NCBI GenBank assembly: GCA_963924565.1
Contig: OZ004609.1
Span: 7,502,001 to 7,566,000 of the forward strand
From: Ascidiella aspersa
Taxonomy: Eukaryota
Length of the DNA stretch: 64,000 nt
Direction of reading: 5' to 3'
The notes beneath the pieces are model-generated. The model worked only from the letters and a program-made list of their open reading frames with translations. It did not search any database and was not told the DNA's origin. Shown here in pieces: positions 1-64,000 of the stretch. Every line of letters starts with the position of its first letter. Position 1 is the first letter of the stretch. Made by a program: the position numbers and the translations under genes.

Positions 1-1203
1 TACCAAATTGGCGCAAGAGACACCAATTATTATCACTATCGTTTAGGAGGCCAAGATTAGTGTTTTTTATAATTAAACACAACACGTGTAGTTCTAAAAT
101 CTAGACTGCGTATAGCAGTAGAAAGAAATGCGTCCCTACGGTCGTGGAATAGACAAATCTCTGTGCAATATAAATATAGCAAATTAAAATAAAAACACTA
201 ATTTTTGTTTGAAGCCGTACTTTATATACCTTTTGCCCAAACGCAATTGTTGTATCTACATCGGGGTAGACTTTTAAATAAATTGTATTTAGTGCTTAGC
301 CGCAATATTTTTGTGATGTTTTTTGTTTCTTTTGTTTTCATATATCTCAATTGAAATATTTTTAGTATCAGAGCTGATATGCCCGGTGCTAAGTGATATA
401 GTATCGGCACTCGTCCGATATTCTTGTGGTATCGGTGCTAATTTAATCCAACACGATATTGCAATTTGTTTTGCGAGCAAAAGTTGTTAACAGTCAAAAA
501 AGATATTTCAAAATCGTTGTTCATCAACAACCAAGGGTAATTGGGCTTCTCAAAGCTCAAGATCACATTAACCTTGACAAAATGCCTACACACGTTTTAA
601 GTTCGCCAATTTGACTTGTTTGGCCATCGTAGCAACGTTAATCGACTGCGCTTCCGTACTTCGCCCCAAATATCGGCAATCGGAATAAAACACGAAAGAT
701 AGAGAACCCTCTATAGTCACCAAAAGTATTACAGAGCTCTTGGTAACTAACCGTGTTACCGTCTATTTGTGATTTCATACTTGAAGCAATGCACCTGGAT
801 AAACGTTAGTTTTTCGCTACAGTTTTATCTGCAGTTGTTTGTTTTAGACCTAACGAGTCTAACTGTGAAGAAAAAAATGGTTTAGTGTCAAATCACGGGC
901 TCGGGCATTTTACCACAATCTTCCCGGAAACGTTTCTGCAAATCATCGAAAAAAAACCCTGCAAAACGTGAAGAAAGGTGGCAAGAAATGCCACATAACG
1001 TTAGCACTAGTGTCATTTTCTAAAAGACGTTCAACATGCCAGTAACGTAAATTCATCGTTGGGTGACGTCATACTGCTGTGTCGTCCGAGGAAATCTATA
1101 GCTGTAAATTGACAGAAAATTTCTCCAGAGGTTTAGCAAGAGGCACAAAGCAAGGACGAAATAAGCGTCACTGCTTTCGAAAAAAATATTAACGAGAACT
1201 CAC

Positions 1204-1239
1204 CGCAATGCAAGCCAGTAGAACGATCAGGATTCTCAT
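1204..1239 (-). CDS. Copy 0, exon 1 only (signal-peptide exon MRILIVLLACIA); the rest of the gene lies left of the window
   Basis: Same as exon 1 of the other copies: ATG at 1239, GTGAGT donor after 1204, TATATAA at 1305-1311. Confidence 0.88.
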
Positions 1240-1659
1240 CTTCTGCAAGTTTTCTTCCTCTTGTCTTCGAGTGAAAGACTGAAGATGGCTTATTGGTGCG
1301 GCGATTATATAGAGTATCGCGTGGCTTTGAAGAGGTGCTGTTTTTAACAACCAAGAAAAATATTTTTGGGGCCGCTGTTGGAGCACCGGACACCTGAGAC
1401 GCAAAGCACTCTCGACAAATCGCGTCGTGGCCCTCATGCAAGCGCGTTCAGCTAACCTTCAAGTGTAGTTTCGTGCATGCCTGCCACTCTCGCCTGTCAA
1501 TCATCCTGCATCTCGTCTGTGCTGTGAGCCGTTTGTCACATTGATCAAGGGTCTAATCGCGCAGTAATTGCTCTCGGGACGCAAAATTCCGCTAGGTTTG
1601 CGACATCTGAAGTTCCACCTGACGATTGTTGAAGAGCTCTCGTCCAGAGCCGACCTATT

Positions 1660-1856
1660 CCGTGACGATCGAATCGCTGAGGTTTGTATGTTTAAGCACT
1701 ACCTGCCGATGAATCGAGAGCTCGCGCAACAATCAATTCCTCTCGTGCCGATGCAATGTTTTCAACTTGTTATGACGTTGACGATGATGTTGCTATGCCA
1801 CGTGGTGCACACATGTCAAGGGCTAACTAGGAAAATCTACCGGTAATTTTCCACTG
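1660..1856. repeat. Upstream duplicated block, proximal copy (~197 bp; in every unit)
   Basis: Direct repeat of 2331-2526 (ccgtgacgatcgaa...ggtaattttccactg), roughly 85% identical by eye. Confidence 0.93.
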
Positions 1857-1885
1857 TGGTTGGATTCCGCTGACAGTTATCCAGA

Positions 1886-2164
1886 CACTGCAAAAATGGA
1901 TGCTCTCTTAATTAGTTGATGTCTGGATCGCATTTAAGTGAAATGCAGCACTAGGCTACAAAACAATACTATGACTATCAATATCATCACTGTTTACTTT
2001 GATGTAAATCATTCAACACACTAATAAAAGGTGATGTATTTAACTTATCTTTGTTTTTGTCTCAAGCTGTGTCTAAATCAAATAATTTTGTTAATAACGC
2101 TTCAGATGTGTAAGCAAATTATATAAGACCCATTTGTTTTTTTGTCCGATTGGGTTTTACAGTG
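1886..2164. mobile_element. ~280-bp non-autonomous TIR element with CACTG...CAGTG ends (CMC/EnSpm-like MITE); in every unit
   Basis: Left end CACTGCAAAA and right end TTTTACAGTG match at 9/10 as inverted repeats. The interior is AT-rich and non-coding. The flanks GA/TA are an imperfect 2-bp TSD. Confidence 0.55.
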
Positions 2165-2330
2165 TAAATTTCCGAACATCTACATTTTTCCTTGTGTGTT
2201 TCGTAAAATGCTTGCTGCACGTTAAGCCCCAAAGCTGTGTTTTAATTGTTTCAATGTGGTTCGCTACTTCGCACCTTGCAGTAGATACATTTTATTTTAG
2301 GCACCACAATTGGCGCTGTTTTCGAATTAT

Positions 2331-2526
2331 CCGTGACGATCGAACCACTGAGGTTTGTCTGTTTTAAGCATAACCTGCCGATGAATCGAGAGCTCGGGCA
2401 GCAATCAATTGCTCTCGTGACGATGCAATGTTTTCCGGTTGTTATGACGTTGACGATGATGTTGCTATGTCACGTGGCTCACAGATGTCAAGCGCTAAAT
2501 TGGAACTTACTGGTAATTTTCCACTG
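2331..2526. repeat. Upstream duplicated block, distal copy (in every unit)
   Basis: Direct repeat of 1660-1856. Confidence 0.93.
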
Positions 2527-2996
2527 GGATGTATATCAATCAAAGCAGCACTTAGAGTGTATTCGGGTTTTGATTTACCACCTTAGCTTGCCCTGTTAAC
2601 ACGAATTTAGGCACTTTACAACTACTCCTATCTCACATATTTATGGAACATTTCTTTACGACAAACAGTTAACCTAAAGTCTTTTTAAAAACCCAGTTTA
2701 AAAACCTGGGTATGCGTGTGTATGAAGATGGAATTATCTAATTTGATAGGCGCATTATTTCGCTTTAAAAAATACATTTTAATGTTTTTAACAATAGTTT
2801 ATAAAATAAAGTGTTTTTTATCTTGTGTCGATCTTAAACGTATTGTTTAGGTATCACTAATCAGTAACCTGCACTTGATAATTTCGGGGACTTTGGCAAG
2901 TTCTGAACGTTTTAAAATAAATGTAGCAATTATTTTAGCGAAACCGGAAGAAAATACCCTGGTCTGTGTCTGAATTGGTTAGCAAGTATTCAAACA

Positions 2997-3009
2997 CGCC
3001 ACCTAGCAG
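2997..3009 (-). promoter_or_regulatory. CTCF-like motif in the intergenic spacer (in every unit)
   Basis: The minus strand reads CTGCTAGGTGGCG, compared with the CTCF core CCASYAGRKGGCR. Confidence 0.3.
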
Positions 3010-3722
3010 CACAAAGATAATTTAGCAACTGTTACATTTGGCGTTTTTGTTTAAACTTTAGTTGAAATCACTTTTCGGAAAAGCAGCTTTATGTATTGCG
3101 AAGTAGTAATGTTCTTACAACATATCTCCCTTTAAATTTTGTTTTATTCTGTATTTTCTGTTGGAGAAAACGAAATTTAAATATAGTTGTTTTTATTCAA
3201 TTTTCGAGTCATAAATAATATGACTATAGGCCTATCACTTTGCCTCCACTCCAATGCATATTGGCCAAATAGGTGTTTTAGTTTGTATTTATTAAAGGAG
3301 GAATTAAAATATTATCTTAAATGTGCATTTGTTCTGAATATGCTAAAATATATTCAAAATAAAGCGGCTACTTTTTAACATACCCGTGTATGGCAAAGAT
3401 TATTTAGATATTAGTAGGTTTTCTGCAACATATCAGATTTCATGTTGTGCTAAACGGGCTTGAAATGGTTAACTTTTGCATACGCAATAAACTCCTAGAT
3501 TCAATGTAGAGTAACTAAATCATGAAACTTCATTAGGAACATTTTGGTTTATAATTTTTGGCAGTTGAAAAATATTTGTATAATTTTAAGCGCTTAGCAT
3601 ATTTTCAGACAAAACTGCATAAACGTTATTGCTACACTTCATAAATAATATTGTTGCAAAGTTGTATTCAGGTGAAAAGTCAAACAAGGATAAGCATCGA
3701 TGAAGAATACCGCTCGATTTTT

Positions 3723-4052
3723 TGGTTGCGGGGGAGCTGGAAAGGATTGTCTGGCGAGCGGTGATATAGGCAGCTAGTTGAAGAATTTGTGGAAAGTTGC
3801 AGTTCGGGACGGGCGCAAGTGGGTCGGGCTTTGCGGTGAGGGGCAGCCAAAGGGCTTTCGGACAAATTCGGGTTTGCAAAAGGTTTATTTTGTTTCCAAA
3901 ACTGTCTGCGCAACGTTGTTCAGCAGCTAGCTAGCTAGCAGCAAGCAGTTTCACCTTAGGCTCGATTGTTACGTCATAATGCCCTGGAAGGTGGCGAGAT
4001 TCGTATGCGCTAATGCATTAGGGAAAAAGGCCGGTTCAGTATTGGGAGTTTT
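3723..4052. repeat. ~330-bp GC-richer element, copy 3' of the gene (in every unit)
   Basis: Colinear diverged match to 8748-9079. Shared cores include tttattttgt, tgcgcaacgttgttca, ttacgtca-aatgcc, aaggtggcg and gaaaaaggcc. Confidence 0.85.
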
Positions 4053-4338
4053 TTTCTTTGCGATTAGGAGCGTTTATTGGTTTTTGTTTAGTTGTTTATG
4101 TTCGACACAATAAGTCAAAATTTCAAAGTGTTAAACCAAGTTGCGCTTTATTGTTGCTAAAGGGAAAAATAGTTAGAGCTCTAGATTTTATCACATTTTA
4201 GTCGCCATCGAAAATGGGCAAGTTGTTCGAGGGTGCTAACAAACATAAAATGAATGTTGATACTCCTGTTTTATCCTATATCATTAGCAGTATTTCCTGA
4301 AATCAAACAAAACCGTCTGCCCAAAAAAGTCAACTTGA

Positions 4339-4413
4339 AACAAACACAATTTAATGTTGTTATTTTTGTTTTATTTTTCCGCAACGATGTTGGAAATCAA
4401 GTGAAGGTTTATT
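4339..4413 (-). terminator. Polyadenylation region of copy A
   Basis: AATAAA at 4413-4408 (AATAAG in copies C-F). An invariant AATAAA at 4375-4370 is followed about 20-35 nt later by a GT-rich element (ttgtgtttgtttc). Confidence 0.7.
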
Positions 4414-4479
4414 AAGTAAGCCATCACAATTCTAATTGGCACTACGTTTCCGAACATCGTCTGCTGGTTGACGGTATAC

Positions 4480-4534
4480 TCAGCAGAACCTGTAGCGACC
4501 TCCGTAGCAAGACAGGCGGTATCTGTAGGTACGG
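4480..4534 (-). CDS. Copy A exon 11 coding part (CRTYRYRLSCYGGRYRFC-stop)
   Basis: Acceptor ttttctttcAG, phase 2; TGA at 4482-4480; AATAAA downstream. Confidence 0.88.
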
Positions 4535-7500
4535 CTGAAAGAAAACAACAAGGATTAGGTACAAACCAAATATCAGCTTAAAAATTCCAAAACGGTTTGC
4601 GGTTGAATTCTATTGATATGTGTGCCGCAATTTTTCGTTAGAATGGATAGAAGACAATTAACTATATACTAAATGTAAAAAACGCTTCATAAAACGGAAT
4701 AACCTAAGATTAAAAAACAAAAAAGTTTTGCAAACCTTAACGTAACATAACGACAACATTTTCCAAATTACATTACGTAAAGGGCTAGATTCCAATTTGT
4801 TTACATGGGTGCAAAATAGTTAAGACCATAATACTCTCCATCCGAAAGAGATCGTCTTCATAGAACAGAAACACTAAACTATTGCCAATCTTATTGCAAC
4901 GGGAAAACAGCAGGAAAGGTGAAATCAATCTAATTGCAATTAAGTAAATGGCGACTTACCAGTAAGAGCGGTACTTGTAGCGGTAGGTGCAGCCGCTTGG
5001 ATAGCAGATGCTCCACTTGTAGTAGTTGCCGAAGCAGAAGCCGGGGAAGCAGTACCTGGCGATCTTGCATTTGTAACAGCACGAATAATGCTGAACCAAA
5101 GCGGGCAAGTCGGTTTGCCAGCACTCGTCGAACTTGGCAAGGATCTCTTCATCCCTGTATTTGTTCAATGCAGCGAGATATCTGGTGAGGAGTGTGGTGA
5201 CCTCATCGGGCAAGGTTTCGCCGAACATGAACTTCAGCATGCTCGTGTAACGACCAATTTGAACTTGAATGGCCTGGAAAGTGCAGTTTCCAAATAAAAA
5301 CTGGCTCGTTGAATAAAAGGCATTCGCACAGTTTTGCCCAGCGTATGGTGTAGCACTTTTATTTGCGAGTGACCAAAAAACTGAAATCAAGTCCAATGAA
5401 CGCAGAATATTTGTGCAATATTTACTTAATCAACACCGTGTAAATATAATAATACGTTAGACCCCTTATTACTCACATCGTCAACGGCCTTCTTAAGACA
5501 TTCGCGTTGTGCGTCGCGTTTTCCTTCCAACTTTGTCTGATATTCACCGATTGCCGTAGTTCTGTCAGTAAGACACGTTGAGTACTTGGTTTTGACGTCT
5601 TCGATGTAGCCTTCAAGACGCAGTTTGTAGGCGTCGCGTTTTGCGTTGAAGTCTGTCTCGGCATCGTCACGGTAACCCTTGAGCTTTTCCTCGTATTCTG
5701 TCACTTTGCCGTCAACCAAACCTTCCAATTCGCTCTTTTTAGCGTCAACCTCTGTTTGCTGCTCGGTCGTCAGCTCCTTGGAATTGTTGCTGCAAAGTCA
5801 AATAATAACAGTTTAAGCAATTTCAATTAAAAAGTAGTTGATTTTCAGATTTCTGATAACAAGTAGTTGATTTTTGTAAAACAAAGCTCAAGTGATGTTC
5901 GAACCAAAGAACGTCGGAATGGGGACACAAGCAAACTGGAATGAGTTCGAAACTTGGTGAAAGAACGATGTGCTAATGCGGCGATGAAGAAAGCAACTTA
6001 CATGCAATAGTAGTGGTTGATCAATTGGTTGACTTCCCACTCGTCACGAGCCTCGACCACTTCGCGATACTTAGTGGAGTAAGTTGCATGGATACCCTCC
6101 CACTTGAGCTTCCAAGCGTCGAACAAGCCTTGGATTTTAGTGATTGCGTCGTCCTTTGCTGTTGTCATATCCTTAACGGCATCGTCTGCTGTTGGGTTAA
6201 CTGCGTCTGTAAATAGAAGCACAAGTCAAAACAAAATTCATGGCAATATAAGTGTAAACATTGTGCTCCTAAAGAGAAGCCATGGATAGCCGACATTCAA
6301 AAAGTGGTTAAAAATCTATCAAAAGGCGACAAATCGTATTAAACGGCTTTCATGAAAAAGTTTCATAGTTCCTTTAAAAGTCAATTATTGCTTTTGTATG
6401 GCAATAAAAACGTAACTAAAAACAAGGTACAGTATAAATTATTCAAGTTTCGTTTAAAAACTAAACAGAAAGTATCGCATGGTTTACTTACCAACGTCGC
6501 AAGTCTTCAGGCCAGTGTAGCTGACTTTACGCCATCTGTAGCAGAATGGGCCGATGGAGTATGAGCGGACACAATAACTGCTCTTGAAGCAGTACCAGTT
6601 TCTCAGACTGCGACTTTAAACGAAATTAACATTGAGTGGATATTATCTACTGAATTACAACAGGTTTTTAGAAATAATTTACGTGTTTAACATTCTGGTA
6701 AGAGTTTGTCAATTGTAATAACTTTTGTGGCACTTAACCCTTTTCGTATAGGCAGGTTCATATTGACCGTATGAATATTTTGAATAGACAATATAATTAT
6801 GTAGAAAAAAGTACTAGAAATTGTGGAACACGTTTGTTGATATATTTAGTATTTTGTAAAATAGCATTGTTTTATTTATTATTGTGCGATATTCTGTTTA
6901 GTTTTGCAGAATCAAAGCACTCACCATCCATGATAGTAGCTACGCTTGTAGAATTTGAGGTAACAATTGGTGAGGAAGCATCTGTAGGCGCAAGAGTAGT
7001 ACATGACAAGCTTATCCTTATTTTCGTTCAGCTTGGTTTCGTATTCATCCGCCCAACCAGTGATCTTAGCAGTTTCGTCATCGCTGTACTTGGTAATGGC
7101 AGCTTCAATCACCTCGTCGGTCAAATGTGTTTCCGTGTCCAACTTTTCTGTAAATTGTTGCATTGCAATGACATGAGCAGTTATCGCATTGTAAGTTGCT
7201 CGACGTCCAACCTACCGTGAGCGCGTTCAAGGGAGCAACGAAGAGCCGCCTTCTTCTGTTCAAGGATTTTGTTGTGGTATTCGGTGAACTTCGTCTTGTA
7301 GTCGGTCACCTTTTGAGCCAGGGCGGACGTGTACTCACTGATCTTGGTGTTCCTTGTGTTAAGGCATTCGACGGCACTGCAACCAATATTTGACGGTTTG
7401 AATGGCATATAAAAAGGTACTGTGTTTGCTAAATTATAGCACTTGATTTGTCGAGATTAAAATCGTTTTCCACATATCTTGACGTTTACTTAACACTGTG

Positions 7501-10500
7501 ATATATTTATAAACAACTATATGGAATTGCCAGAATGTGCCAAAAAATGTCCTACGGTAATGACTACGTTATCACACATATTAAATTTAAACTTTTTAAA
7601 ATGCCAAATGCAATCGCAGTAAGATTATTGTTGCATATGTTTGGTATTTAGAATTTTTAAGTGAATAAGTATCGAAGGTTTCCAACCGTGAGACCAACTC
7701 CTTGTGGTAATCTTCAACCGCTGTTTTCTTTGCCGCAAGAGCAGTGCCATAATCGCTTTTTGCTTTTGTGACTTTACCGTCGATATCTTCGTTGTAGAGT
7801 CTTATCTTTTCATCCCTTTCGTCGCGAAGTGTTTGTTTATCCGCCTCCTCTTCTTTGGCACTGTTAGAAAGAAAAAAACATTATTACAAGGTTTTGTGAA
7901 TCTTTTTTGTGAAAAAAACAAATAAACATCAAACTGGATCTTTAACAGAAAAAGAAATTTAGCAAAAATTAATGCATCAGGCAGTTTATTGGCCGTACGA
8001 AAATTCGAGTTTGTATGTTTTTTTGTTTAAAATTTTTTAGGCTAATGTTCACCAACAAACATTTCGGACTGTCGTTTTAGCTTTTAAACCAGTGGTTCCC
8101 AAACATGTTTGGCTCGCTGCACCCAAAAAAGTCTTAAGTATTTCGCGGCACACTTTTAACAGAAAACAATAGAGTAATCTTAAAATCGCCCTTAACACAC
8201 GAACTATATGTAAAAGTCTCAAAATTATTAGTTTGTAATGGATAGTGCGTATTTAAGTGTAAAATGATTGTGTATATGCCTATTTGTAATACAAATACTT
8301 ATTACTAAATCATGAAATGTTAATATAAAGAACGTCTAATTACTCAATCAAGTATTTGTAATATGTTTCAATGTGATTCTTGAAGGCATCTTTGTAGAGG
8401 CCGGCACGCTTGTCTAAGTCGGCTTCCCAGTCGGTTTTACGCGAGTCCATCTCTCCAGTGATCCTAGTGTACTCAGTTGAAAGTTCTCCTTCCATTTCTG
8501 TTTTGACTTCGTCGACGGTTTTTTCTGCAAAACAATGGTGATTTTCAGACGGAGAAGCATTACCAAGCTAATACCCTGCATTAAAGAATAACGTTAAGCT
8601 TTTTGCATTCATAAACAGCTTCAACTTACAAGACAAACTTAACTGCTAGATTTTTGACGGTAATGAATAAATAATAAATAAAAGGGGTGGGGCACTGCTA
8701 GATTTAGCACTTGCAGATTATTGCGTCATAATTAAATAAAAACAATGTGGTTTCGAGGGGCGCAAGAGAGTGTTGCCAACAAGGGAGCGGCGAAATGTGC
8801 AGCCAACTGAACAACTCGGTGGAAATCTGTTTTTGGGCTGGATGCCGGAGGGTAATTCGTGGTGGCTATGCGAGGCCAAAGAGTTCCCGAACGAATTTAT
8901 GCGAGGCAACTTCGCAAAAGTTTTATTTTGTCTCCCAAAACCTATGCGCAACGTTGTTCAACAGCTGTCTAGCAGTAACAGTTGACCTAAAGTGCGAGTA
9001 TTACGTCACAATGCCGTGTAAGGTGGCGTGATTTTCTAGTGCTGTAGAGAAAAAGGCCAGTTTAGTAGTGAGTGTATTTCGCAAAAGAAAAAGCAGGCGA
9101 GCACTTTTTCCTTTGCGCATATGCAAGGTTGTTTCATGTTTTAAAGTTTGCATATCTTACGCAGGCTGCTTAAAGTTTAGCAAAAACTTTTAAATTTAGA
9201 GCAACACCAAAAATTATTTATTTAAACAAAATTTCTCCTTACATAAAGCAAAAATGTCTCCTCTAATCTTGTTTTAACGCTCTGCGCCTTGATTTCATTC
9301 TTATTTTTGGCGGTAATTAATTTTAGTTATTCATTGCAAAACTGTATTGTTTTTGAAAACCAGAAATTGGTGATAATCTAAGAAAGCGTCAAACCTTGCC
9401 ATCCCTCTGTCCCACAGTCGCTCTTTGGGTAGTAGCTAAGGATTTTAGTGTAGTAACTGCTCGTGCACCAGCAGCTCTTGAAGTAGACGTTAAACCTCCA
9501 GAAGGTGTAGGGAGGGTAAACGTTGAAATGGTGGGAGCAGTAGTACTTGTAGCCGTACGTATAATAATACGAACCGGCGTTGGCCGCCTGCATTAAACAA
9601 AATGCTGTGATTAGCAAAGTTTTTATTCAGGGAAATTGAAAGTTAAGGTTCCTTGAGCAAATTTATGGACTTAACCTTTACAGTTTTCAGACAAACTTTA
9701 AACAAAGTATATTTTTTATGTATTTGTTTAATCTAAACAATATTCAAAACACAACCAATTTCATTTCAAACCGGCGCTTCTCCTTACCAAGGTAAAAAAG
9801 GCAAACACGCGTGGTTGCTGATAATTTTTATTGGTTAAGCTCAATTTTAACCTCGCAGCAGCCGCAACCAGGATTCCCCGTAGTTGACAAATTCATTAGC
9901 AGGCTTCAATAGGTTGGGCTGCACACATGTTTTCTGTATTCTTAACTAAGATAACCAGTATACCATACGTAAGTAAGTTGCTGAGCACATGTGTTTAGAA
10001 AACCAAAACAGCCTTGAAGCTCTTTTTTTAATTGTTGAAAAACGTACTATACACAAATCGAAAATGGCTAATGAAAATACAACAACAAAAACAACAAGTT
10101 ACGGGTTTTGTTTGAAATATTCAGCAATTTGTTTTATGTTTTACTTGTTTTAGTGCAATACCACAGGCGTTTTGTTTTCAAAAAGAATTTTACATCAATA
10201 GAAGAAAAAAGAACTGAAGAAAAAATTACGAGTTTTAGGCGATAAAACAGTGAGAAATCATTTAAAGGAATAAACATTTAAGGGGATACACTTAAACGCG
10301 CTTTATTATTAGCAGGCTCACTTCCCATCTGTCAACTGTGGGGAATAAAGTATAAAAGTCAAACAAACAACGCGTATATTTCTACTGAATTCGCCTAGAA
10401 TTAGGCGGTATTTCCAACCACTCAACAAAATCAAAACAGTCTCAATAATGGATTGTAGATTGTTGGTAAATTTATCGGGCCTTCAACACATCTAGCCTTG

Positions 10501-12450
10501 TGTAAGGACAAAAGCTGCCTTATATAAAATTTTCAAGTGCGTAGTGGTTAAACGAGGGGTGACACATTTTTCGATGCCGATAATTGTAACAGAGAAACAT
10601 TGTTTTTTGCAAAAACTAAATTAATTTTTTTTTTGTTTTCTATTAAAAAGTCATTCAATTTTTTCCCAAAAATACAGCTTTTAGAAATACGTGGAGGGAA
10701 AATCAATTGTTTTAAAGCTAGCGACCTGAAATTTTTTTTAGTATGTTTTGTTGTTGCTAGGGTTGATTAAAATAGGCTTGCAAAAAATTGTGTCCCTCTT
10801 TTTGTTCAACTAATTACTCGCAATCATTCTCAGTGCCTTAACCAACGTCTGCTGGAACGAAAGAAAAAGCTATTATTTGATGGTTGCTTGAAATCGCGAT
10901 TTAAACATTCAAGTTTACAATGTGCCTTTATCACCTGTCGGATCCACTTTAATCTGATTTTTATGTTAAGATAGTAAATTTTACCAGGGATACCAACTAC
11001 CACAGTCGCACGTTATGCTATTATTGTTCCCTAACGTTACGACGCACAAACAGTTTTAAAGACCTTATGCGAACATTGAAAACAACAAAATTATGCCGTT
11101 GTTTTACGTCATGTTCGGGTTTTGATTTTTAAAAGCACATGAAAAATCTAAGGAATATATCAAATAAATTGAGTCGAAACTAGAAATGTTTTGGTAAAAC
11201 TAAAAGCCCGATTACCAAATTGGCGCAAGAGACACCAATTATTATCACTATCGTTTAGGAGGCCAAGATTAGTGTTTTTTATAATTAAACACAACACGTG
11301 TAGTTCTAAAATCTAGACTGCGTATAGCAGTAGAAAGAAATGCGTCCCTACGGTCGTGGAATAGACAAATCTCTGTGCAATATAAATATAGTAAATTAAA
11401 ATAAAAACACTAATTTTTGTTTGAAGCCGTACTTTATATACCTTTTGCCCAAACGCAATTCTTGTATCTACATCGGGGTAGACTTTTAAATAAATTGTAT
11501 TTAGTGCTTAGCCGCAATATTTTTGTGATGTTTTTTGTTTCTTTTGTTTTCATATATCTCAATTGAAATATTTTTAGTATCAGAGCTGATATGCCCGGTG
11601 CTAAGTGATATAGTATCGGCACTCGTCCGATATTCTTGTGGTATCGGTGCTAATTTAATCCAACACGATATTGCAATTTGTTTTGCGAGCAAAAGTTGTT
11701 AACAGTCAAAAAAGATATTTCAAAATCGTTGTTCATCAACAACCAAGGGTAATTGGGCTTCTCAAAGCGCAAGATCACATTAACCTTGACAAAATGCCTA
11801 CACACGTTTTAAGTTCGCCAATTTGACTTGTTTGGCCATCGTAGCAACGTTAATCGACTGCGCTTCCGTACTTCGCCCCAAATATCGGCAATCGGAATAA
11901 AACACGAAAGATAGAGAACCCTCTATAGTCACCAAAAGTATTACAGAGCTCTTGGCAACTAACCGTGTTACCGTCTATTTGTGATTTCATACTTGAAGCA
12001 ATGCACCTGGATAAACGTTAGTTTTTCTCTACAGTTTTATCTGCAGTTGTTTGTTTTAGACCTAACGAGTCTAACTGTGAAGAAAAAAATGGTTTAGTGT
12101 CAAATCACGGGCTCGGGCATTTTACCACAATCTTCCCGGAAACGTTTCTGCAAATCATCGAAAAAAAACCTGCAAAACGTGAAGAAAGGTGGCAAGAAAT
12201 GCCACATAACGTTAGCACTAGTGTCCTTTTCTAAAAGACGTTCAACATGGCAGTAACGTAAATTCATCGTTGGGTGACGTCATACTGCTGTGTCGTCCGA
12301 GGAAATCTATAGCTGTAAATTGACAGAAAATTTCTCCAGAGGTTTAGCAAGAGGCACAAAGCAAGGACGAAATAAGCGTCACTGCTTTCGAAAAAAATAT
12401 TAACGAGAACTCACCGCAATGCAAGCCAGTAGAACGATCAGGATTCTCAT
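4480..12450 (-). CDS. Copy A: intact 11-exon gene for a ~658-aa secreted Tyr/Cys-rich, helical-rod block protein
   Basis: Coding exons: 12450-12415, 9587-9395, 8524-8344, 7860-7687, 7376-7216, 7147-6925, 6613-6492, 6206-6002, 5789-5477, 5273-4960, 4534-4480. All introns are GT-AG with phases 0,1,2,2,1,2,1,2,0,2. The exons sum to 1977 nt, one open frame ending in TGA. The N-terminus MRILIVLLACIAAANA is a typical signal peptide. Confidence 0.92.
4960..5273 (-). CDS. Copy A exon 10 (AIQVQIGRY...TYRYKYRSY)
   Basis: Acceptor ctttccAG; donor TG|GTAAGT. Confidence 0.9.
5477..5789 (-). CDS. Copy A exon 9 (INNSKELTTEQQ...CLKKAVDD)
   Basis: Acceptor ctttgcAG; donor GAT|GTGAGT, phase 0. Confidence 0.9.
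6002..6206 (-). CDS. Copy A exon 8 (DAVNPTADDAVKDM...LINHYYC)
   Basis: Acceptor tttacAG; donor AT|GTAAGT. Confidence 0.9.
6492..6613 (-). CDS. Copy A exon 7 (CRSLRNWYCFKSSYCVRSYSIGPFCYRWRKVSYTGLKTCDV)
   Basis: Acceptor tttaaAG (an alternative in-frame CAG lies 6 nt downstream); donor G|GTAAGT. Confidence 0.85.
6925..7147 (-). CDS. Copy A exon 6 (EKLDTETHLTDEV...LVMYYSCAYRC...YYHG)
   Basis: Acceptor tttacAG; donor TG|GTGAGT. Confidence 0.9.
7216..7376 (-). CDS. Copy A exon 5 (RAVECLNTRNTKISEY...CSLERAH)
   Basis: Acceptor ttgcAG; donor G|GTAGGT; followed by a 68-nt intron. Confidence 0.88.
7687..7860 (-). CDS. Copy A exon 4 (DAKEEEADKQTLRDERDEK...YHKELVS)
   Basis: Polypyrimidine tract plus ctaacAG; donor CG|GTTGGA (phase 2), compatible with exon 5. 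Confidence 0.86.
8090..8153 (+). mobile_element. Single terminal remnant of a hAT (Buster/Charlie-type) element in intron 3
   Basis: CAGTGGTTCCCAAAC terminus followed by a cgcggcacac subterminal motif. The preceding 8-mer tttTAaac fits the nnnTAnnn target preference. No opposite TIR was found in the intron. Confidence 0.55.
8344..8524 (-). CDS. Copy A exon 3 (EKTVDEVKTEMEGELSTEY...HIETYYKYLI)
   Basis: Acceptor ttttgcAG; donor GA|GTAATT; open, charged helical frame that the ORF track misses. Confidence 0.88.
8748..9079. repeat. ~330-bp GC-richer element, copy in intron 2 (in every unit)
   Basis: Same-orientation diverged match to 3723-4052. Confidence 0.85.
9395..9587 (-). CDS. Copy A exon 2 (AANAGSYYYTYGYKYYC...DCGTEGWQ; first Tyr/Cys block)
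   Basis: Acceptor ttaatgcAG; donor G|GTTTGA (phase 1), compatible with exon 3. Confidence 0.88.
12275..12282. promoter_or_regulatory. Full CRE palindrome TGACGTCA near the 5' end of intron 1 (also 1064-1071 and the other units)
   Basis: Exact 8-bp consensus about 135 bp inside intron 1; function untested. Confidence 0.35.
12415..12450 (-). CDS. Copy A exon 1 (MRILIVLLACIA)
   Basis: ATG lies 41 nt downstream of the Inr +1. The donor is GCG|GTGAGT, phase 0. It joins exon 2 to complete the signal peptide ...AANA. Confidence 0.88.
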
Positions 12451-12487
12451 CTTCTGCAAGTTCTCTTCCTCTTGTCTTCGAGTGAAA

Positions 12488-12522
12488 GACTGAAGATGGC
12501 TTATTGGTGCGGCGATTATATA
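12488..12522 (-). promoter_or_regulatory. Core promoter of copy A: TATA box plus initiator (also upstream of the other exon-1 copies, e.g. 1277-1311)
   Basis: TATATAA at 12522-12516 and TCAGTC at 12493-12488. The A(+1) at 12491 puts the TATA start at -31, the canonical spacing. Confidence 0.85.
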
Positions 12523-15500: not shown

Positions 15501-15689
15501 TATTTCCTGAAATCAAACAAAACCGTCTGCCCAAAAAAGTCAACTTGAAACAAACACAATTTAATGTTGTTATTTTTGTTTTATTTTTCCGCAACGATGT
15601 TGGAAATCAAGTGAAGGTTTATTAAGTAAGCCATCACAATTCTAATTGACACTACGTTTCCCAACATCGTCCACTGGTTGACGAGATAC

Positions 15690-18600
15690 TCAGCAGTACC
15701 TGTAGCGACCTCTGTAGCAAGACAGGCGGTATCTGTAGGTACGGCTGAAAGAAAACAACAAGGATTAGGTACAAACCAAATATCAGCTTAAAAATTCCAA
15801 ATCGCTTTGCGGTTGAATTCTATTGATATGTGTGCCGCTATTTTTCGTTAGAATGGATAAAAGACAATTAACTATATACTAAATGTAAAAAACGCTTCAT
15901 AAAACGGAATAACCTAGGATTAAAAACAAAAAAGTTTTGCAAACCTTAACATAACATAACGACAACATTTTCCAAATTACATTACGTAAAGGGCTAGATT
16001 CCAATTTGTTTACATGGGTGCAAAATAGTTAAGACCATAATATTCTCCATCCGAAAGAGATCGTCTTCATAGAACAGAAACACTAAACTATTGCCAATCT
16101 TATTGCAACGGGAAAACAGCAGGAAAGGTGAAATTAATCTAATTGCAAATAAGTAAAAGGCGACTTACCAGTAAGAGCGGTACTTGTAGCGGTAGGTGCA
16201 GCCGCTTGGATAGCAGATGCTCCACTTGTAGTAGTTGCCGAAGCAGAAGCCGGGGAAGCACCACCTGGCGATCTTGCATTTGTAACAGCACGAATAATAC
16301 TGAACCAAAGCGGGCAAGTCGGTTTGCCAGCACTCGTCGAACTTGGCAAGGATCTCGTCATCCCTGTATTTGTTCAATGCCGCGGTATATTTGGTGATGA
16401 GTGTGGTGACCTCATCGGGCAAGGTTTCGCCGAACATGAACTTCAGCATGCTCGTGTAACGACCAATTTGAACAAGAATGGCCTGGAAAGTGCAGTTTAC
16501 AAATAAAAATTAGCTCGTTGTATAAAAGGTATTCGCACAGTTTTTCTCAGCGTATGGTGTAGCACTTTTATTTGCGAGTGACCAAAAAACTGAAATCAAG
16601 TGCAGAATATTTGTGCAATATTTACTTAATCAACACCGTGTAAATATAATAATACGTTAGACCCCTTAGATTTACTCACATCGTCAACGGCCTTCTTAAG
16701 ACATTCGCGTTGTGCGTCGCGTTTTCCTTCCAACTTTGTCTGATATTCACCGATTGCCGTAGTTCTGTCAGTAAGACACGTTGAGTACTTGGTTTTGACG
16801 TCTTCGATGTAGCCTTCAAGACGCAGTTTGTAGGCGTCGCGTTTTGCGTTGAAGTCTGTCTCGGCATCATCACGGTAACCCTTGAGCTTTTCCTCGTATT
16901 CTGTCACTTTGCCGTCAACCAAACCTTCCAATTCGCTCTTTCTAGCGTCAACCGCTGTTTGCTGCTCGGTCGTCAGCTCCTTGGAATTGTTGCTGCAAAG
17001 TCAAATAATAACAGTTTAAGCAATTTCAATTAAAAAGTAGTTGATTTTCAGATTTCTGATAACAAGTAGTTGATTTTTGTAAAACAAAGCTCAAGTGATG
17101 TTCGAACCAAAGAACGTCGGAATGGGGACACAAGCAAACTGGAATGAGTTCGAAACTTGGTGAAAGAACGATGTGCTAATGCGGCGATGAAGAAAGCAAC
17201 TTACATGCAATAGTAGTGGTTGATCAATTGGTTGACTTCCCACTCGTCACGAGCCTCGACCACTTCGCGATACTTAGTGGAGTAAGTTGCATGGATACCC
17301 TCCCACTTGAGCTTCCAAGCGTCGAACAAGTCTTGGATTTTAGTGATTGCGTCGTTCTTTGCTGTTGTCATATCCTTAACGGCATCGTCTGCTGTTGGGT
17401 TAACTGCGTCTGTAAATAGAAGCACAAGTCAAAACAAAATTCATGGCAATATAAGTGTAAACATTGTGCTCCTAAAGAAAAGCCGTGGATAGACGACATT
17501 CAAAAAGTGGTTAAAAATCTATTAAAAGGCGACAAATCGTATTAAACGGCTTTCATGAAAAAGTTTCATAGTTCCTTTAAAAGTCAAATATTGCTTTTTT
17601 ATGGCAATAAAAACGTAACTAAAAACAAGGTAAAGTATAAATTATTCAAGTTTCGTTTAAAAACTAAACAGAAAGTATCGCATGGTTTACTTACCAACGT
17701 CGCAAGTCTTCAGGCCAGTGTAGCTGACTTTACGCCATCTGTAGCAGAATGGGCCGATGGAGTATGAGCGGACACAATAACTGCTCTTGAAGCAGTACCA
17801 GTTTCTCAGACTGCGACTTTAAACGAAATTAACATTGAGTGGATACTATCTACTGAATTACAACAGGTTTTTAGAAATAATTTACGTGTTTAACATTCTG
17901 GTAAGAGTTTGTCAATTGTAATAACTTTTGTGGCACTTAACCCGTTTCGTATAGGCAGGTTCATATTGACCGTATGAATATTTTGAATAGGCAATATAAT
18001 TATGTAGAAAAAGTACTAGGAATTGTGGAACACGTTTGTTGATATATTTAGTATTTTGTAAAATAGCATTGTTTTATTTGTTATTGTGCGATATTCTGTT
18101 TAGTTTTGCAGAATCAAAGCACTCACCATCCATGATAGTAGTTACGCTTGTAGAATTTGAGGTAACAATTGGTGAGGAAGCATCTGTAGGCGCAAGAGTA
18201 GTACATGACAAGCTTATCCTTATTTTCGTTCAGCTTGGTTTCGTATTCATCCGCCCAACCAGTGATCTTAGCAGTTTCGTCATCGCTGTACTTGGTAATG
18301 GCAACTTCAATCACATCGTCGGTCAAATGTGTTTCCGTGTCCAACTTTTCTGTAAATTGTTGCATTGCAATGACTCGAGCAGATATCGCATTGTAAGTTG
18401 CTCGACGTCCAACCTACCGTGAGCGCGTTCAAGGGAGCAACGAAGAGCCGCCTTCTTCTGTTCAAGGATTTTGTTGTGGTATTCGGTGAACTTCGTCTTG
18501 TAGTCGGTCACCTTTTGAGCCAGGGCGGACGTGTATTCAGTGATCTTGGTGTTCCTTGTGTTAAGGCATTCGACGGCACTGCAAACAATATTTGACGGTT

Positions 18601-43100: not shown

Positions 43101-45105
43101 TCTCAATAATGGATTGTAGATTGTTGGTAAATTTATCGGGCCTTCAACACATCTAGCCTTGTGTAAGGACAAAAGCTGCCTTATATAAAATTTTCAAGTG
43201 CGTAGTGGTTAAACGAGGGGTGACACATTTTTCGATGCCGATAATTGTAAGAGAGAAACATTGTTTTTTGCAAAAACTAAATTAATTTTTTTTTGTTTTC
43301 TGTCATTCAATTTTTTCCCAAAAATACAGCTTTTAGAAATACGTGGAGGGAAAATGAATTGTTTTAAAGCTAACGACCTGAAAATTTTTTTAGTATGTTT
43401 TGTTGTTGCTAGGGTTGATTAAAATAGGCTTGCAAAAAATTGTGCCCCTCTTTTTGTTCAACTAATTACTCGCAATCATTCTCAGTGCCTTAACCAACGT
43501 CTGCTGGAACGAAAGAAAAAGCTATTATTTGATGGTTGCTTGAAATCGCGATTTAAACATTCAAGTTTACAATGTGCCTTTATCACCTGTCGGATCCACT
43601 TTAATCTGATTTTTATGTTAAGATAGTAAATTTTACCAGGGATACCAACTACCACAGTCGCACGTTATGCTATTATTGTTCCCTAACGTTACGACGCACA
43701 AACAGTTTTAAAGACCTTATGCGAACATTGAAAACAACAAAATTATGCCGTTGTTTTACGTCATGTACGGGTTTTGATTTTTAAAAGCACATGAAAAATC
43801 TAAGGAATATATCAAATAAATTGAGTCGAAACTAGAAATGTTTTGGTAAAACTAAAAGCCCGATTACCAAATTGGCGCAAGAGACACCAATTATTATCAC
43901 TATCGTTTAGGAGGCCAAGATTAGTGTTTTTTATAATTAAACACAACACGTGTAGTTCTAAAATCTAGACTGCGTATAGCAGTAGAAAGAAATGCGTCCC
44001 TACGGTCGTGGAATAGACAAATCTCTGTGCAATATAAATATAGTAAATTAAAATAAAAACACTAATTTTTGTTTGAAGCCGTACTTTATATACCTTTTGC
44101 CCAAACGCAATTCTTGTATCTACATCGGGGTAGACTTTTAAGTAAATTGTATTTAGTGCTTAGCCGCAATATTTTTGTGATGTTTTTTGTTTCTTTTGTT
44201 TTCATATATCTCAATTGAAATATTTTTAGTATCAGAGCTGATATGCCCGGTGCTAAGTGATATAATATCGGCACTCGTCCGATATTCTTGTGGTATCGGT
44301 GCTAATTTAATCCAACACGATATTGCAATTTGTTTTGCGAGCAAAAGTTGTTAACAGTCAAAAAAGATATTTCAAAATCGTTGTTCATCAACAACCAAGG
44401 GTAATTGGGCTTCTCAAAGCTCAAGATCACATTAACCTTGACAAAATGCCTACACACGTTTTAAGTTCGCCAATTTGACTTGTTTGGCCATCGTAGCAAC
44501 GTTAATCGACTGCGCTTCCGTACTTCGCCCCAAATATCGGCAATCGGAATAAAACACGAAAGATTAGAGAACCCTCTATAGTCACCAAAAGTATTACAGA
44601 GCTCTTGGTAACTAACCGTGTTACCGTCTATTTGTGATTTCATACTTGAAGCAATGCACCTGGATAAACGTTAGTTTTTCGCTACAGTTTTATCTGCAGT
44701 TGTTTGTTTTAGACCTAACGAGTCTAACTGTGAAGAAAAAAATGGTTTAGTGTCAAATCACGGGCTCGGGCATTTTACCACAATCTTCCCGGTAACGTTT
44801 CTGCAAATCATCGAAAAAAAAACCCTGCAAAACGTGAAGAAAGGTGGCAAGAAATGCCACATAACGTTAGCACTAGTGTCCTTTTCTAAAAGACGTTCAA
44901 CATGCCAGTAACGTAAATTCATCGTTGGGTGACGTCATACTGCTGTGTCGTCCGAGGAAATCTATAGCTGTAAATTGACAGAAAATTTCTCCAGAGGTTT
45001 AGCAAGAGGCACAAAGCAAGGACGAAATAAGCGTCACTGCTTTCGAAAAAAATATTAACGAGAACTCACCGCAATGCAAGCCAGTAGAACGATCAGGATT
45101 CTCAT
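37139..45105 (-). CDS. Copy D: apparently intact 11-exon gene
   Basis: Exons: 45105-45070, 42248-42056, 41183-41003, 40516-40343, 40032-39872, 39803-39581, 39271-39150, 38864-38660, 38447-38135, 37931-37618, 37193-37139. Splice sites are retained. Confidence 0.88.
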
Positions 45106-48100: not shown

Positions 48101-48344
48101 CTAACAAACATAAAATGAATGTTGATACTTCTGTTTTATCCTATATCATTAGCAGTATTTTCTGAAATCAAACAAAACCGTCTGCCCAAAAAAGTCAACT
48201 TGAAACAAACACAATTTAATGTTGTTATTTTTGTTTTATTTTTCCGCAACGATGTTGGAAATCAAGTGAAGGCTTATTAAGTAAGCGATCACAATTCTAA
48301 TTGGCACTACGTTTCCGAACATCGTCTGCTGGTTGACGGTATAC

Positions 48345-59300: not shown

Positions 59301-59571
59301 CGAAAATGGGCAAGTTGTTCGAGGGTGCTAACAAACATAAAATGAATGTTGATACTCCTGTTTTATCCTATATCATTAGCAGTATTTCCTGAAATCAAAC
59401 AAAACCGTCTGCCCAAAAAAGTCAACTTGAAACAAACACAATTTAATGTTGTTATTTTTGTTTTATTTTTCCGCAACGATGTTGGAAATCAAGTGAAGGC
59501 TTATTAAGTAAACCATCACAATTCTAAGTGACACTACGTTTCCGAACATCGTCTGCTGGTTGACGGTATAC

Positions 59572-62500
59572 TCAGCAGAACCTGTAGCGACCTCCGTAGC
59601 AAGACAGGCGGTATCTGTAGGTACGGCTGAAAGAAAACAACAAGGATTAGGTACAAACCAAATATCAGCTTAAAAATTCCAAAACGCTTTGCGGTTGAAT
59701 TCTATTGACATGTGTGCCGCTATTTTTCGTTAGAATGGATAAAAGTCAATTAACTATATACTAAATGTAAAAAACGCTTCACAAAACGGAATAACCTAGG
59801 ATTAAAAACAAAAAAGTTTTGCAAACCTTAACATAACATAACGACAACATTTTCCAAATTACATTACGTAAAGGGCTAGATTCCAATTTGTTTACATGGG
59901 TGCAAAATAGTTAAGACCATAATATTCTCCATCCGAAAGAGATCGTCTTCATAGAACAGAAACACTAAACTATTGCCAATCTTATTGCAACGGGAAAACA
60001 GCAGGAAAGGTGAAATTAATCTAATTGCAATTAAGTAAAAGGCGACTTACCAGTAAGAGCGGTACTTGTAGCGGTAGGTGCAGCCGCTTGGATAGCAGAT
60101 GCTCCACTTGTAGTAGTTGCCGAAGCAGAAGCCGGGCAAGCACCACCTGGTGATCTTGCATTTGTAACAGCACGAATAATGCTGAACCAAAGCGGGCAAG
60201 TCGGTTTGCCAGCACTCGTCGAACTTGGCAAGGATCTCGTCATCCCTGTATTTGTTCAATGCAGCGAGATAACTGGTGAGGAGTGTGGTGACCTCATCGG
60301 GCAAGGTTTCGCCGAACATGAACTTCAGCATGCTCGTGTAACGACCAATTTGAACTTGAATGGCCTGGAAAGTGCAGTTTCCAAATAAAAACTGGCTCGT
60401 TGAATAAAAGGTATTCGCACAGTTTTGCCCAGCGTATGGTGTAGCACTTTTATTTGCGAGTGACCAAAAAACTGAAATCAAGTGCAGAATATTTGTGCAA
60501 TATTTACTTAATCAACACCGTGTAAATATAATAATACGTTAGACCCCTTAGATTTACTCACATCGTCAACGGCCTTCTTAAGACATTCGCGTTGTGCGTC
60601 GCGTTTTCCTTCCAACTTTGTCTGATATTCACCGATTGCCGTAGTTCTGTCAGTAAGACACGTTGAGTACTTGGTTTTGACGTCTTCGATGTAGCCTTCA
60701 AGACGCAGTTTGTAGGCGTCGCGTTTTGCGTTGAAGTCTGTCTCGGCATCATCACGGTAACCCTTGAGCTTTTCCTCGTATTCTGTCACTTTGCCGTCAA
60801 CCAAACCTTCCAATTCGCTCCTTTTAGCGTCAACCGCTGTTTGCTGCTCGGTCGTCAGCTCCTTGGAATTGTTGCTGCAAAGTCAAATAATAACAGTTTA
60901 AGCAATTTCAATTAAAAAGTAGTTGATTTTCAGATTTCTGATAACAAGTAGTTGATTTTTGTAAAACAAAGCTCAAGTGATGTTCGAACCAAAAAACGTC
61001 GGAATGGGGACACAAGCAAACTGGAATGAGTTCGAAACTTGGTGAAAGAACGATGTGCTAATGCGGCGATGAAGAAAGCAACTTACATGCAATAGTAGTG
61101 GTTGATCAATTGGTTGACTTCCCACTCGTCACGAGCCTCGACCACTTGGCGATACTTAGTGGAGTAAGTTGCATGGATACCCTCCCACTTGAGCTTCCAA
61201 GCGTCGAACAAGCCTTGGATTTTAGTGATTGCGTCGTCCTTTGCTGTTGTCATATCCTTAACGGCATCGTCTGCTGTTGGGTTAACTGCGTCTGTAAATA
61301 GAAGCACAAGTCAAAACAAAATTCATGGCAATATAAGTGTAAACATTGTGCTCCTAAAGAAAAGCCGTGGATAGACGACATTCAAAAAGTGGTTAAAAAT
61401 CTATTAAAAGGCGACAAATCGTATTAAACGGCTTTCATGAAAAAGTTTCATAGTTCCTTTAAAAGTCAAATATTGCTTTTTTATGGCAATAAAAACGTAA
61501 CTAAAAACAAGGTAAAGTATAAATTATTCAAGTTTCGTTTGAAAACTAAACAGAAAGTATCGCATGGTTTACTTACCAACGTCGCAAGTCTTCAGGCCAG
61601 TGTAGCTGACTTTACGCCATCTGTAGCAGAATGGGCCGATGGAGTATGAGCGGACACAATAACTGCTCTTGAAGCAGTACCAGTTTCTCAGACTGCGACT
61701 TTAAACGAAATTAACATTGAGTGGATACTATCTACTGAATTACAACAGGTTTTTAGAAATAATTTACGTGTTTAACATTCTGGTAAGAGTTTGTCAATTG
61801 TAATAACTTTTGTGGCACTTAACCCGTTTCGTATAGGCAGGTTCATATTGACCGTATGAATATTTTGAATAGGCAATATAATTATGTAGAAAAAGTACTA
61901 GGAATTGTGGAACACGTTTGTTGATATATTTAGTATTTGTTAAAATAGCATTGTTTTATTTGTTATTGTGCGATATTCTGTTTAGTTTTGCAGAATCAAA
62001 GCACTCACCATCCATGATAGTAGTTACGCTTGTAGAATTTGAGGTAACAATTGGTGAGGAAGCATCTGTAGGCGCAAGAGTAGTACATGACAAGCTTATC
62101 CTTATTTTCGTTCAGCTTGGTTTCGTATTCATCCGCCCAACCAGTGATCTTAGCAGTTTCGTCATCGCTGTACTTGGTAATGGCAGCTTCAATCACCTCG
62201 TCGGTCAAATGTGTTTCCGTGTCCAACTTTTCTGTAAATTGTTGCATTGCAATGACTCGAGCAGTTATCGCATTGTAAGTTGCTCGACGTCCAACCTACC
62301 GTGAGCGCGTTCAAGGGAGCAACGAAGAGCCGCCTTCTTCTGTTCAAGGATTTTGTTGTGGTATTCGGTGAACTTCGTCTTGTAGTCGGTCACCTTTTGA
62401 GCCAGGGCGGACGTGTATTCAGTGATCTTGGTGTTCCTTGTGTTAAGGCATTCGACGGCACTGCAAACAATATTTGACGGTTTGAATGGCATATTAAAAG

Positions 62501-63612
62501 GTACTGTGTTTGCTAAATTATAGCACTTGATTTGTCAAGATTAAAATCGTTTTCCACATATCTTGACGTTTACTTAACACTGTGATATATTTATAAACAA
62601 CTATATGGAATTGCAAGAATGTGCCAAAAAATGTCCTACGGTAATGACTACGTTATCACACATATTAAATTTAAACTTTTTAAAATGCCAAATGCAATCG
62701 CAGTAAGATTATTGTTGCATATGTTTGGTATTTAGATTTTTTAAGTGAATAAGTATTGAAGGTATCCAACCGTGAGACCAACTCCTTGTGGTAATCTTCA
62801 ACCGCTGTTTTCTTTGCCGCAAGAGCAGTGCCATAATCGCTTTTTGCTTTTGTGACTTTACCGTCGATATCTTCGTTGTAGAGTCTTATCTTTTCATCCC
62901 TTTCGTCGCGAAGTGTTTGTTTATCCGCCTCCTCTTCTTTGGCACTGTTAGAAAGAAAAAAAACATTATTACAAGGTTTTGTGAATCTCTTTTGTGAAAA
63001 AAACAAATAAACATTAAACTGGATCTTTAACAGAAAAATAAATTGAGCATAAATTAATGTATCAGGCAGTTTATTGGCCGTACGAAAATTCGAGTTTGTA
63101 TGTTTTTTTGTTTAAAATTTATTAGGCTAATGTTCACCACCAACCATTTCGGACTGTCGTTTTAGCTTTTAAACCAGTGGTTCCCAAACATGTTTGGCTC
63201 GCTGCACACATAAAAATCTTAAGTATTTCGCGGCACACTTTTAACAGAAAACAATAGAGTAATCTTAAAATCGCCCTTAACACACGACGAACTATATGTA
63301 AAAGTCTCAAAATTATTAGTTTGTAATGGATAGTGCGTATTTAAGTGTAAAATGATTGTGTATATGCCTATTTGTAATACAAATACTTATTACTAAATCA
63401 TGAAATGTTAATATAAAGAACGTCTAATTACTCAATCAAGTATTTGTAATATGTTTCAATGTGATTCTTGAAGGCATCTTTGTAGAGGCCGGCACGCTTG
63501 TCTAAGTCGGCTTCCCAGTCGGTTTTACGCGAGTCCATCTCTCCAGTGATCCTAGTGTACTCAGTTGAAAGTTCTCCTTCCATTTCTGTTTTGACTTCGT
63601 CGACGGTTTTTT
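59572..63612 (-). CDS. Copy F: exons 3-11 (exons 1-2 would lie right of the window)
   Basis: Exons: 63612-63432, 62944-62771, 62460-62300, 62231-62009, 61698-61577, 61291-61087, 60874-60562, 60364-60051, 59626-59572. Confidence 0.86.
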
Positions 63613-64000
63613 CTGCAAAACAATGGTGATTTTCAGACGGAGAAGCATTACCAAGCTAATACCCTGCATTGAAGAATAACGTTAAGCTTTTTGCATTCAT
63701 AAACAGCTTCAACTTACAAGACAAACTTAACTGCTAGATTTTTGACGGTAATGAATAAATAATAAATAAAAGGGGTGGGGCACTGCTAGATTTAGCACTT
63801 GCAGATTATTGCGTCATAATTAAATAAAAACAATGTGGTTTCGAGGGGCGCAAGAGAGTGTTGCCAACAAGGGAGCGGCGAAATGTGCAGCCAACTGAAC
63901 AACTCGGTGGAAATCTGTTTTTGGGCTGGATGCCGGAGGGTAATTCGTGGTGGCTATGCGAGGCCAAAGAGTTCCCGAACGAATTTATGCGAGGCAACTT

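Follow-up and report, generated by a model that had tools for sequence, protein, structure and literature searches.

The 64,000-nucleotide stretch of Ascidiella aspersa contig OZ004609.1 analysed here (positions 7,502,001 to 7,566,000, in the following the window) is occupied by a real tandem array of one gene, which by sequence comparison is of the tunicate endostyle-specific (Ends1/2) type. A gene of 11 exons with its TATA/initiator (Inr) promoter and a spacer of 3 kb make up the repeated unit. The protein consists of two repeats of a long, predicted amphipathic helical rod, bounded by three basic blocks rich in tyrosine and cysteine (Tyr/Cys blocks). The preferred reading, held as a whole with a probability of roughly 0.58, is that this array turns over by exchange between its units and is kept for bulk secretion of a net thread by the endostyle.

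Self-BLAST of the window yields long direct plus-strand matches of 98.4-99.5% identity across its whole length, and the near-identity of the head-to-tail units holds in genes and spacers alike, a feature of arrays of the ribosomal DNA (rDNA) and histone type. Start codons are found at 1239, 12450, 22689, 33900, 45105 and 56330, with spacings of 11211, 10239, 11211, 11205 and 11225 nucleotides. Two deletions, of 880 bp and 88 bp, make the single short unit ~970 nt shorter. Pairwise substitution distances in an alignment of six units are 0.47-1.28% (15 pairs), with 258 variable sites (2.0% of spacer, 2.4% of intron and 2.0% of coding positions) and 14-59 private substitutions per unit. The GC content of the window is 38%, and it contains no short tandem repeats. 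The array and its copies are located as follows.

1..64000, minus strand: head-to-tail array of ~11.2-kb units, running past both window ends, so that the copy number is at least seven
1204..1311, minus strand: copy 0, partial; TATA box (1311-1305), Inr-like motif, 5' untranslated region (UTR) and coding exon 1 (1239-1204)
4480..12450, minus strand: copy 1, intact, 658 amino acids (aa), from splice signals and alignment to relatives
12450-12415, 9587-9395, 8524-8344, 7860-7687, 7376-7216, 7147-6925, minus strand: exons 1-6 of copy 1
6613-6492, 6206-6002, 5789-5477, 5273-4960, 4534-4480, minus strand: exons 7-11 of copy 1
15690..22689, minus strand: copy 2, pseudogene; exon 2 deleted, frameshift
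20405..20416, no strand: junction of the 880-bp deletion that removes exon 2 of copy 2, with ~6 nt of microhomology
21500..21512, no strand: junction of the 88-bp deletion in intron 1 of copy 2
25931..33900, minus strand: copy 3, 658-aa open frame; intron 8 donor GC, not GT
37139..45105, minus strand: copy 4, intact, 658 aa
48345..56330, minus strand: copy 5, intact, 658 aa
59572..64000, minus strand: copy 6, partial; exons 3-11, all splice sites canonical, the first two exons lying beyond the right window end

Four of the five complete copies (1, 3, 4 and 5) are intact and differ by 3-8 of 658 residues. Exon 1 of copy 0 encodes most of the signal peptide, the rest of this copy lying left of the window. 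Copy 2 is a decaying pseudogene: because the deletion takes out exon 2, exon 1 (phase 0) joins exon 3 (phase 1) and the reading frame ends at a stop 48 codons on. Of the 14 codon changes private to this copy, 13 are non-synonymous. The intron 8 donor of copy 3 (27449-27444) carries a GT-to-GC change in an otherwise consensus donor and may still splice.

A preliminary description of the window had reported near-identical 11.2-kb units, at least seven copies (two of them partial) of one intron-containing secretory gene, and copy-specific variants. Its observations are confirmed by the identities and distances given above, by copies 0 and 6, which the window ends cut, by the private substitutions and by the 11-exon model below; the exon-2 loss and frameshift of copy 2 are absent from it, and its interpretation is supported in part. 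The term "rDNA-like", used there, fits the layout but is otherwise overstated. With regard to a literal array of structural RNA genes, ARAGORN detects no tRNA gene in the 64-kb window, and a search of one unit against Rfam returns one chance-level match (E 0.95).

Each unit contains one minus-strand gene with 11 exons and a 658-codon open frame. The gene model is a prediction from splice signals and alignment to relatives, and TBLASTN of the relatives marks the exons independently. In copy 1 the ten GT-AG introns measure 68-2827 nt, the first being 2.8 kb long; the exon-4 donor was placed 12 nt from the first choice, which closes a four-residue gap against all relatives. Exon 1, the signal-peptide exon (unit position 1239-1204), is indicated by TBLASTN with relatives and by the family profile. 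It scores 43.9 against the N-termini of the relatives (best of 300 shuffled spacers: 23.8), and its hydrophobic stretch is assigned as an N-terminal signal peptide by similarity to these N-termini. Spliced to the phase-0 acceptor at 9587 it gives an open frame. A TATA box followed 29 nt downstream by an Inr-like motif precedes all six first exons; shuffled sequences contain such a pair 0.13 times on average and at most once in any of 100 shuffles.

12489..12522, minus strand: core promoter of copy 1, TATA box and Inr-like motif at +29 nt, start codon 72 nt from the TATA box
1278-1311, 22728-22761, 33939-33972, 45144-45177, 56369-56402, minus strand: the same core promoter element in the other copies
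4370..4479, minus strand: 3' UTR with poly(A) signal 105 nt past the stop codon, in all six copies having a 3' end

UTR positions (4370-4479 and 1240-1282) vary more than the 2.0-2.4% of coding, intron and spacer sites (11 of 153 positions, mostly in the 3' UTR).

A first gene model used micro-exons at 10328-10322 and 9817-9788, an acceptor at 9604 and a TATA box near 10525; it had an open frame and a credible signal peptide, and counted six copies. It was dropped: the exon at 12450-12415 matches the N-termini of relatives, comes with the TATA-Inr pair and lifts the BLAST score against the Ciona relative P0012 from 429 to 448 bits, aligned from residue 1. The same N-terminus, BLAST and promoter evidence led to the rejection of exon 1 as a separate second gene in the spacer. 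Two lesions derived from the first model, loss of the start codon in copy 4 and mutation of the TATA box in copy 2, are intronic and void. The micro-exon-like segments of intron 1 (10328-10322, 9817-9788 and 9604-9588), with good splice signals, a signal-peptide-like 5' end and a TATA-like motif near 10525, are probably due to chance, and may have minor use or mark an alternative promoter.

Eleven proteins matched exon 9 at E<=0.001, and three full-length look-alikes among them were kept. With one full-length relative as query, six proteins were found among 8000 candidates, including uncharacterised proteins of C. savignyi and C. intestinalis, a Clavelina lepadiformis protein and P0015, annotated as 'endostyle-specific [Ciona intestinalis]'. 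The window protein matches all eight full-length relatives over nearly their full length (23-40% identity, E 3e-153 to 8e-40), with alignments beginning at residue 1 for six of the eight; BLASTP identity amounts to 36% with P0015 (E 3e-125) and 40% with P0012 (E 3e-153). Both published primers for AB010896 translate to exact 7/7 matches in P0015, and the forward primer of AB010895 matches another relative in 6 of 7 residues. Judged from these alignments, the window gene is a member of the tunicate endostyle-specific (Ends1/2-type) family, and a tunicate source of the window is very probable from the sequence by itself.

Named Ends relatives are Ciona P0015 (AB010896) and its paralogue LOC100186110 (P0012), C. 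savignyi H2YRI4 and H2YML8, and Clavelina lepadiformis P0016. The window protein is 32-40% identical to them over nearly its full length, and has in common with them a signal peptide, a length of 600-660 aa, three Tyr/Cys blocks, two helical halves and a period of 3.66. P0012 and P0015 of Ciona are only ~42% identical, whereas the window copies are ~99% identical and in tandem. In the original Ends papers the genes are said to be expressed in zone 6, a glandular zone of the endostyle.

Further proteins from the exon 9 search were short matches that look like family fragments and remained unused (P0004, P0008 and P0009), or were set aside as apparently unrelated helical proteins (P0003, P0006, P0007, P0010 and P0011). 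A profile search with the family alignment returned only three already known proteins among 7995 candidates, the members with a named source being from Ciona and Clavelina. Exon 10 matched none of 70 candidates among longer proteins; in the ESM Atlas its best score was 0.84 (lead level only), and P0012 had no usable match there. Four supplements of PMC8462739 contained no match. Ends proteins have been named for decades. The literature searched, which takes in few subscription journals, mentions neither a tandem array of Ends genes nor a function of Ends proteins; the gene family itself is known, and its arrangement in tandem is not described in that literature.

The product is predicted to be secreted and comprises 658 aa (~76 kDa). 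Following the signal peptide, three ~60-residue blocks alternate with two charged halves of ~220-235 residues, a pattern that the relatives possess as well; the description is drawn from the present alignment, not from a published definition, and the compositions were computed on an earlier gene model that differs at the N-terminus only. In the blocks Tyr accounts for 18-23% and Cys for 7-16% of the residues, while acidic residues are almost absent; over the whole protein Tyr makes up 10%. A profile of the first half matches the second half of nine out of nine proteins (E 2e-20 to 7e-9; best reversed control E 0.026), and profile-profile comparison of half against half reaches a probability of 99.3%. 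On this sequence evidence the protein is an internal two-fold repeat with homologous halves. The maximum of the hydrophobic period is at 3.65-3.68 in all 16 segments, taken from eight proteins without P0005, and the heptad value of 3.5 has almost no power; the halves form long helices in the predicted structure of P0012 (mean predicted local distance difference test, pLDDT, 76.6). The helical halves are modelled as long amphipathic rods with an 11/3 period. Of the 216 matches listed by Foldseek against the PDB none reached E<=0.001, and the best VIA-align match (Z 8.7) was to generic long helices; such nulls do not make the fold new.

The 11/3 period is that of exchangeable apolipoproteins, and a function other than net fibre, i.e. 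an apolipoprotein-like carrier of lipids or hydrophobes, or a store of iodotyrosine, would agree with two weak matches, one to PF01442 (23.1 bits) and one to chains of apolipoprotein A-I (best E 1e-7). Long amphipathic helices are common to both protein groups, and the weak matches are explained by the shared period. The curated PF01442 cut-off of 90 bits stays far out of reach of the exon that scores 23.1 bits, whose match covers ~100 residues of one helix, and of the three full-length relatives tested (17.5 bits, 27.7 bits and no match). Unlike in apolipoproteins, prolines are rare in the helical halves of the window protein, and the Tyr/Cys blocks are without an apolipoprotein counterpart; the resemblance is best read as convergent. 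A tyrosine share of 10% would suit an iodotyrosine store, as the family belongs to an organ that, according to PMC13078365, iodinates proteins. The ascidian hormone precursor identified so far (PMC12992692), the TG-like thyroid-hormone precursor of Styela, is likewise a secreted endostyle protein offering tyrosines, but measures 630 kDa, carries Tg1 domains and comes from zones 7-9; the window protein of 76 kDa has no Tg1 match, and Pfam finds no such domain in nine exon translations or in three full-length relatives. A carrier or storage function is considered unlikely.

Exchange between units is evident from the distribution of the variable sites. Among pairs of informative sites 390 of 703 are incompatible, at least 17 recombination events are required, and the best of all six-unit trees fits only 12 of 38 sites, where ~3 doubly hit sites are expected. 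In units 1, 2, 5 and 6 the private substitutions form clusters (p 0.001, 0.002, 0.001 and 0.03, respectively), whereas in units 3 and 4 they do not. Given the incompatible sites and the clustered private variants, the units are recombinant mosaics, which agrees with unequal crossing-over, or with conversion, between copies or alleles and supports the exchange contained in the earlier claim of concerted evolution. Patches dense in private substitutions lie in unit 1 (~6000-8300, 35 within 2 kb) and unit 6 (~55900-58900, 23 within 2 kb) and suggest segments from a more diverged allele or copy. Birth-and-death acts as well, since copy 2, one of the five complete copies, has become a pseudogene by frameshift. 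The array is young or homogenised, with birth-and-death, and 'maintained' and 'recently expanded' look alike from this one array.

The same variants bear on the possibility that the array is an artefact, one or two genes being written out repeatedly by duplication of haplotypes or of read errors. Divergence is at the allelic level, and 13 of the 28 small indels stand in homopolymer context, as such an artefact would have it. A diploid, however, yields two versions only, and the window contains six distinct units with their private substitutions, 258 variable sites to 28 small indels, multi-base indels common to non-adjacent units (e.g. a 9-bp deletion in units 2 and 6) and a copy with the pattern of a decaying pseudogene. 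A two-haplotype artefact is therefore unlikely, in agreement with the preliminary description, which had cited the copy-specific variants against it, and an assembly artefact altogether appears very improbable.

Origin and turnover of the array by unequal crossing-over and conversion are strongly inferred. Unequal crossing-over would have multiplied the whole 11.2-kb unit, and continued exchange between units or alleles, by crossing-over or gene conversion, would keep copies within ~1% of each other and mosaic, with copies also dying, as copy 2 exemplifies. Concerted tandem arrays are well known from rDNA and histone repeats, and dosage arrays of secreted products from salivary amylase. The window resembles these arrays in its whole units with promoter and spacer, head to tail, at ~99% identity and with exchange between units, and differs from rDNA and histone arrays in that the unit is an 11-exon protein gene and at least one copy a pseudogene. 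Near-identical tandem arrays of secretory genes are familiar in genome biology, so the layout alone is hardly surprising to a specialist.

The thyroid has its forerunner in the endostyle, which is also the maker of the chordate feeding net. Membership in the Ends family makes bulk secretion plausible: the protein would be a bulk secretion of a gland that continuously spins the net, and more copies would mean more output. The odds are about even that bulk endostyle secretion, its output raised by the extra intact copies, keeps the array. Selection on dosage is plausible, and both it and the massive expression claimed in the preliminary description stay at the level of inference. As a best guess, the product serves the feeding net of the endostyle as a structural protein. 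Its 11/3-period helices would pack into non-heptad bundles or fibres, and the Tyr/Cys blocks could serve as sticky or cross-linking nodes, by disulphides and possibly by dityrosine made by a peroxidase, the result being a structural thread of the mucus net. Two sources describe secretion of the feeding net by the endostyle (PMC6109156, PMC5465252), and a third the iodination of proteins there by a thyroid-type peroxidase (PMC13078365).

Selection among the copies is assessed from the 28 small indels and the variable sites. No small indel falls into coding sequence (0/28, P 0.004), and without unit 2 coding sites are less variable than non-coding ones (1.2% vs ~2%, p 0.011). These results speak for constraint on the coding sequence, although the evidence on selection is mixed. 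They also speak against a neutral recent expansion, in which one duplication was followed by repeated unequal crossing-over, drifting copy number and decay with no dosage benefit; so do the four intact copies of five, and an amplified unit of exactly one gene with its promoter.

A number of results weigh against the preferred reading, several of them agreeing with neutral expansion. The homopolymer context of 13 small indels weakens the indel test, and with all units included coding and non-coding variability are alike (p 0.41). The ratio of non-synonymous to synonymous polymorphism (pN/pS) is 0.86 for all copies (9 synonymous and 31 non-synonymous changes), 0.50 (p 0.09) when copy 2 is set aside and 0.43 (p 0.07) among the four intact copies; over this range of 0.43-0.86 (p 0.07-0.41) it is not significantly below 1, so that neutrality is not rejected. 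One of the five complete copies is dead. The strong codon bias (GC content at synonymous third positions, GC3s, 0.60 against an intron GC of 0.33; C-ending to T-ending two-fold codons 145:46) does fit high expression and with it bulk secretion, the comparison being with the gene's own introns, not with a genome baseline. Proximity does not significantly raise the compatibility of sites (p 0.10). The model of P0012 has a predicted template modelling score (pTM) of 0.36 and Tyr/Cys blocks of low confidence. In a tree of nine rows the window protein falls into no starred set, so that it is not assigned to any one named paralogue or paralogue group, and it is less basic than its relatives (predicted isoelectric point 7.4 vs 8.9-9.5 in eight of eight) because its helical halves are more acidic; endostyle expression is hence carried over by homology only. 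No paper in the literature searched places Ends proteins in the net. The distance of ~1% between copies, finally, lies within ascidian allelic polymorphism, which agrees with neutral expansion. On balance, neutral expansion is judged rather doubtful.

Variable sites are concentrated in exon 10: its 314 nt contain 17 of them and the remaining 1663 nt of coding sequence 23 (p 5e-5), the counts being 10 and 14 without copy 2 (p 0.002). In exon 10 (5273-4960 and equivalents) the variants are largely non-synonymous and lie around codons 561-612. The excess could represent a conversion tract or diversifying selection, and the latter would be expected if copies were kept for slightly different proteins with a role in defence or binding in the pharynx; immune genes, too, are transcribed in the endostyle (PMC5465252). 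Yet the intact copies are only 3-8 of 658 residues apart, and a conversion tract from a diverged allele gives an equal local excess, such patches being present in non-coding DNA as well. A diversifying array is very unlikely.

Under the preferred reading of an array kept for endostyle output, one Ends gene multiplied at least sevenfold constitutes a natural dosage experiment, in which copy number, expression and net output can be related across individuals and species, and the two-fold repeat, the 11/3 helices and the Tyr/Cys nodes lead to testable biochemical predictions. A bolder version, which we consider distinctly improbable, takes Ends proteins as the fibre core of the net, with 11/3 rods and Tyr/Cys nodes that would be cross-linked and iodinated by the thyroid-type peroxidase of the endostyle, and with the gene amplified in this lineage under selection for net output. 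Thyroid chemistry is thought to derive from endostyle iodination. If the bolder version were true, the array would mark the main net protein and a candidate for the ancestral bulk substrate of this iodination.

Further features of the unit are as follows.

1312..4369, no strand: intergenic spacer of ~3.1 kb, repeated per unit, with no gene detected
1659-1856 and 2330-2526, no strand: two direct repeats of ~200 bp, 87% identical, 0.35-1.2 kb upstream of the TATA box in every unit
3873..4053, no strand: spacer copy of a dispersed ~180-bp repeat present twice per unit, the other copy lying in intron 2 (8911-9079, 74% identity)

Pfam gave one weak match, below the cut-off, for 56 non-exonic open reading frames of one unit. 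Together with the ARAGORN and Rfam results this bears out that no other gene lies between the copies, as first described, and a small orphan gene may be present. The direct repeats at 1659-1856 and 2330-2526 are a candidate duplicated enhancer or repeat remnant. The repeat at 3873-4053 and 8911-9079 is likely an old mobile-element remnant; the transposon remnants mentioned in the preliminary description thus find a counterpart in this ~180-bp repeat, but not in any transposase match. A segment of intron 3 (8090 to ~8300) begins with a motif that resembles a terminal repeat of hAT/Charlie type; no partner end turned up within the unit, so that the segment is at best what is left of a truncated element. 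A short motif repeated at 401 and 429, within 361-440 in intron 1 of copy 0, resembles the ends of miniature transposons.

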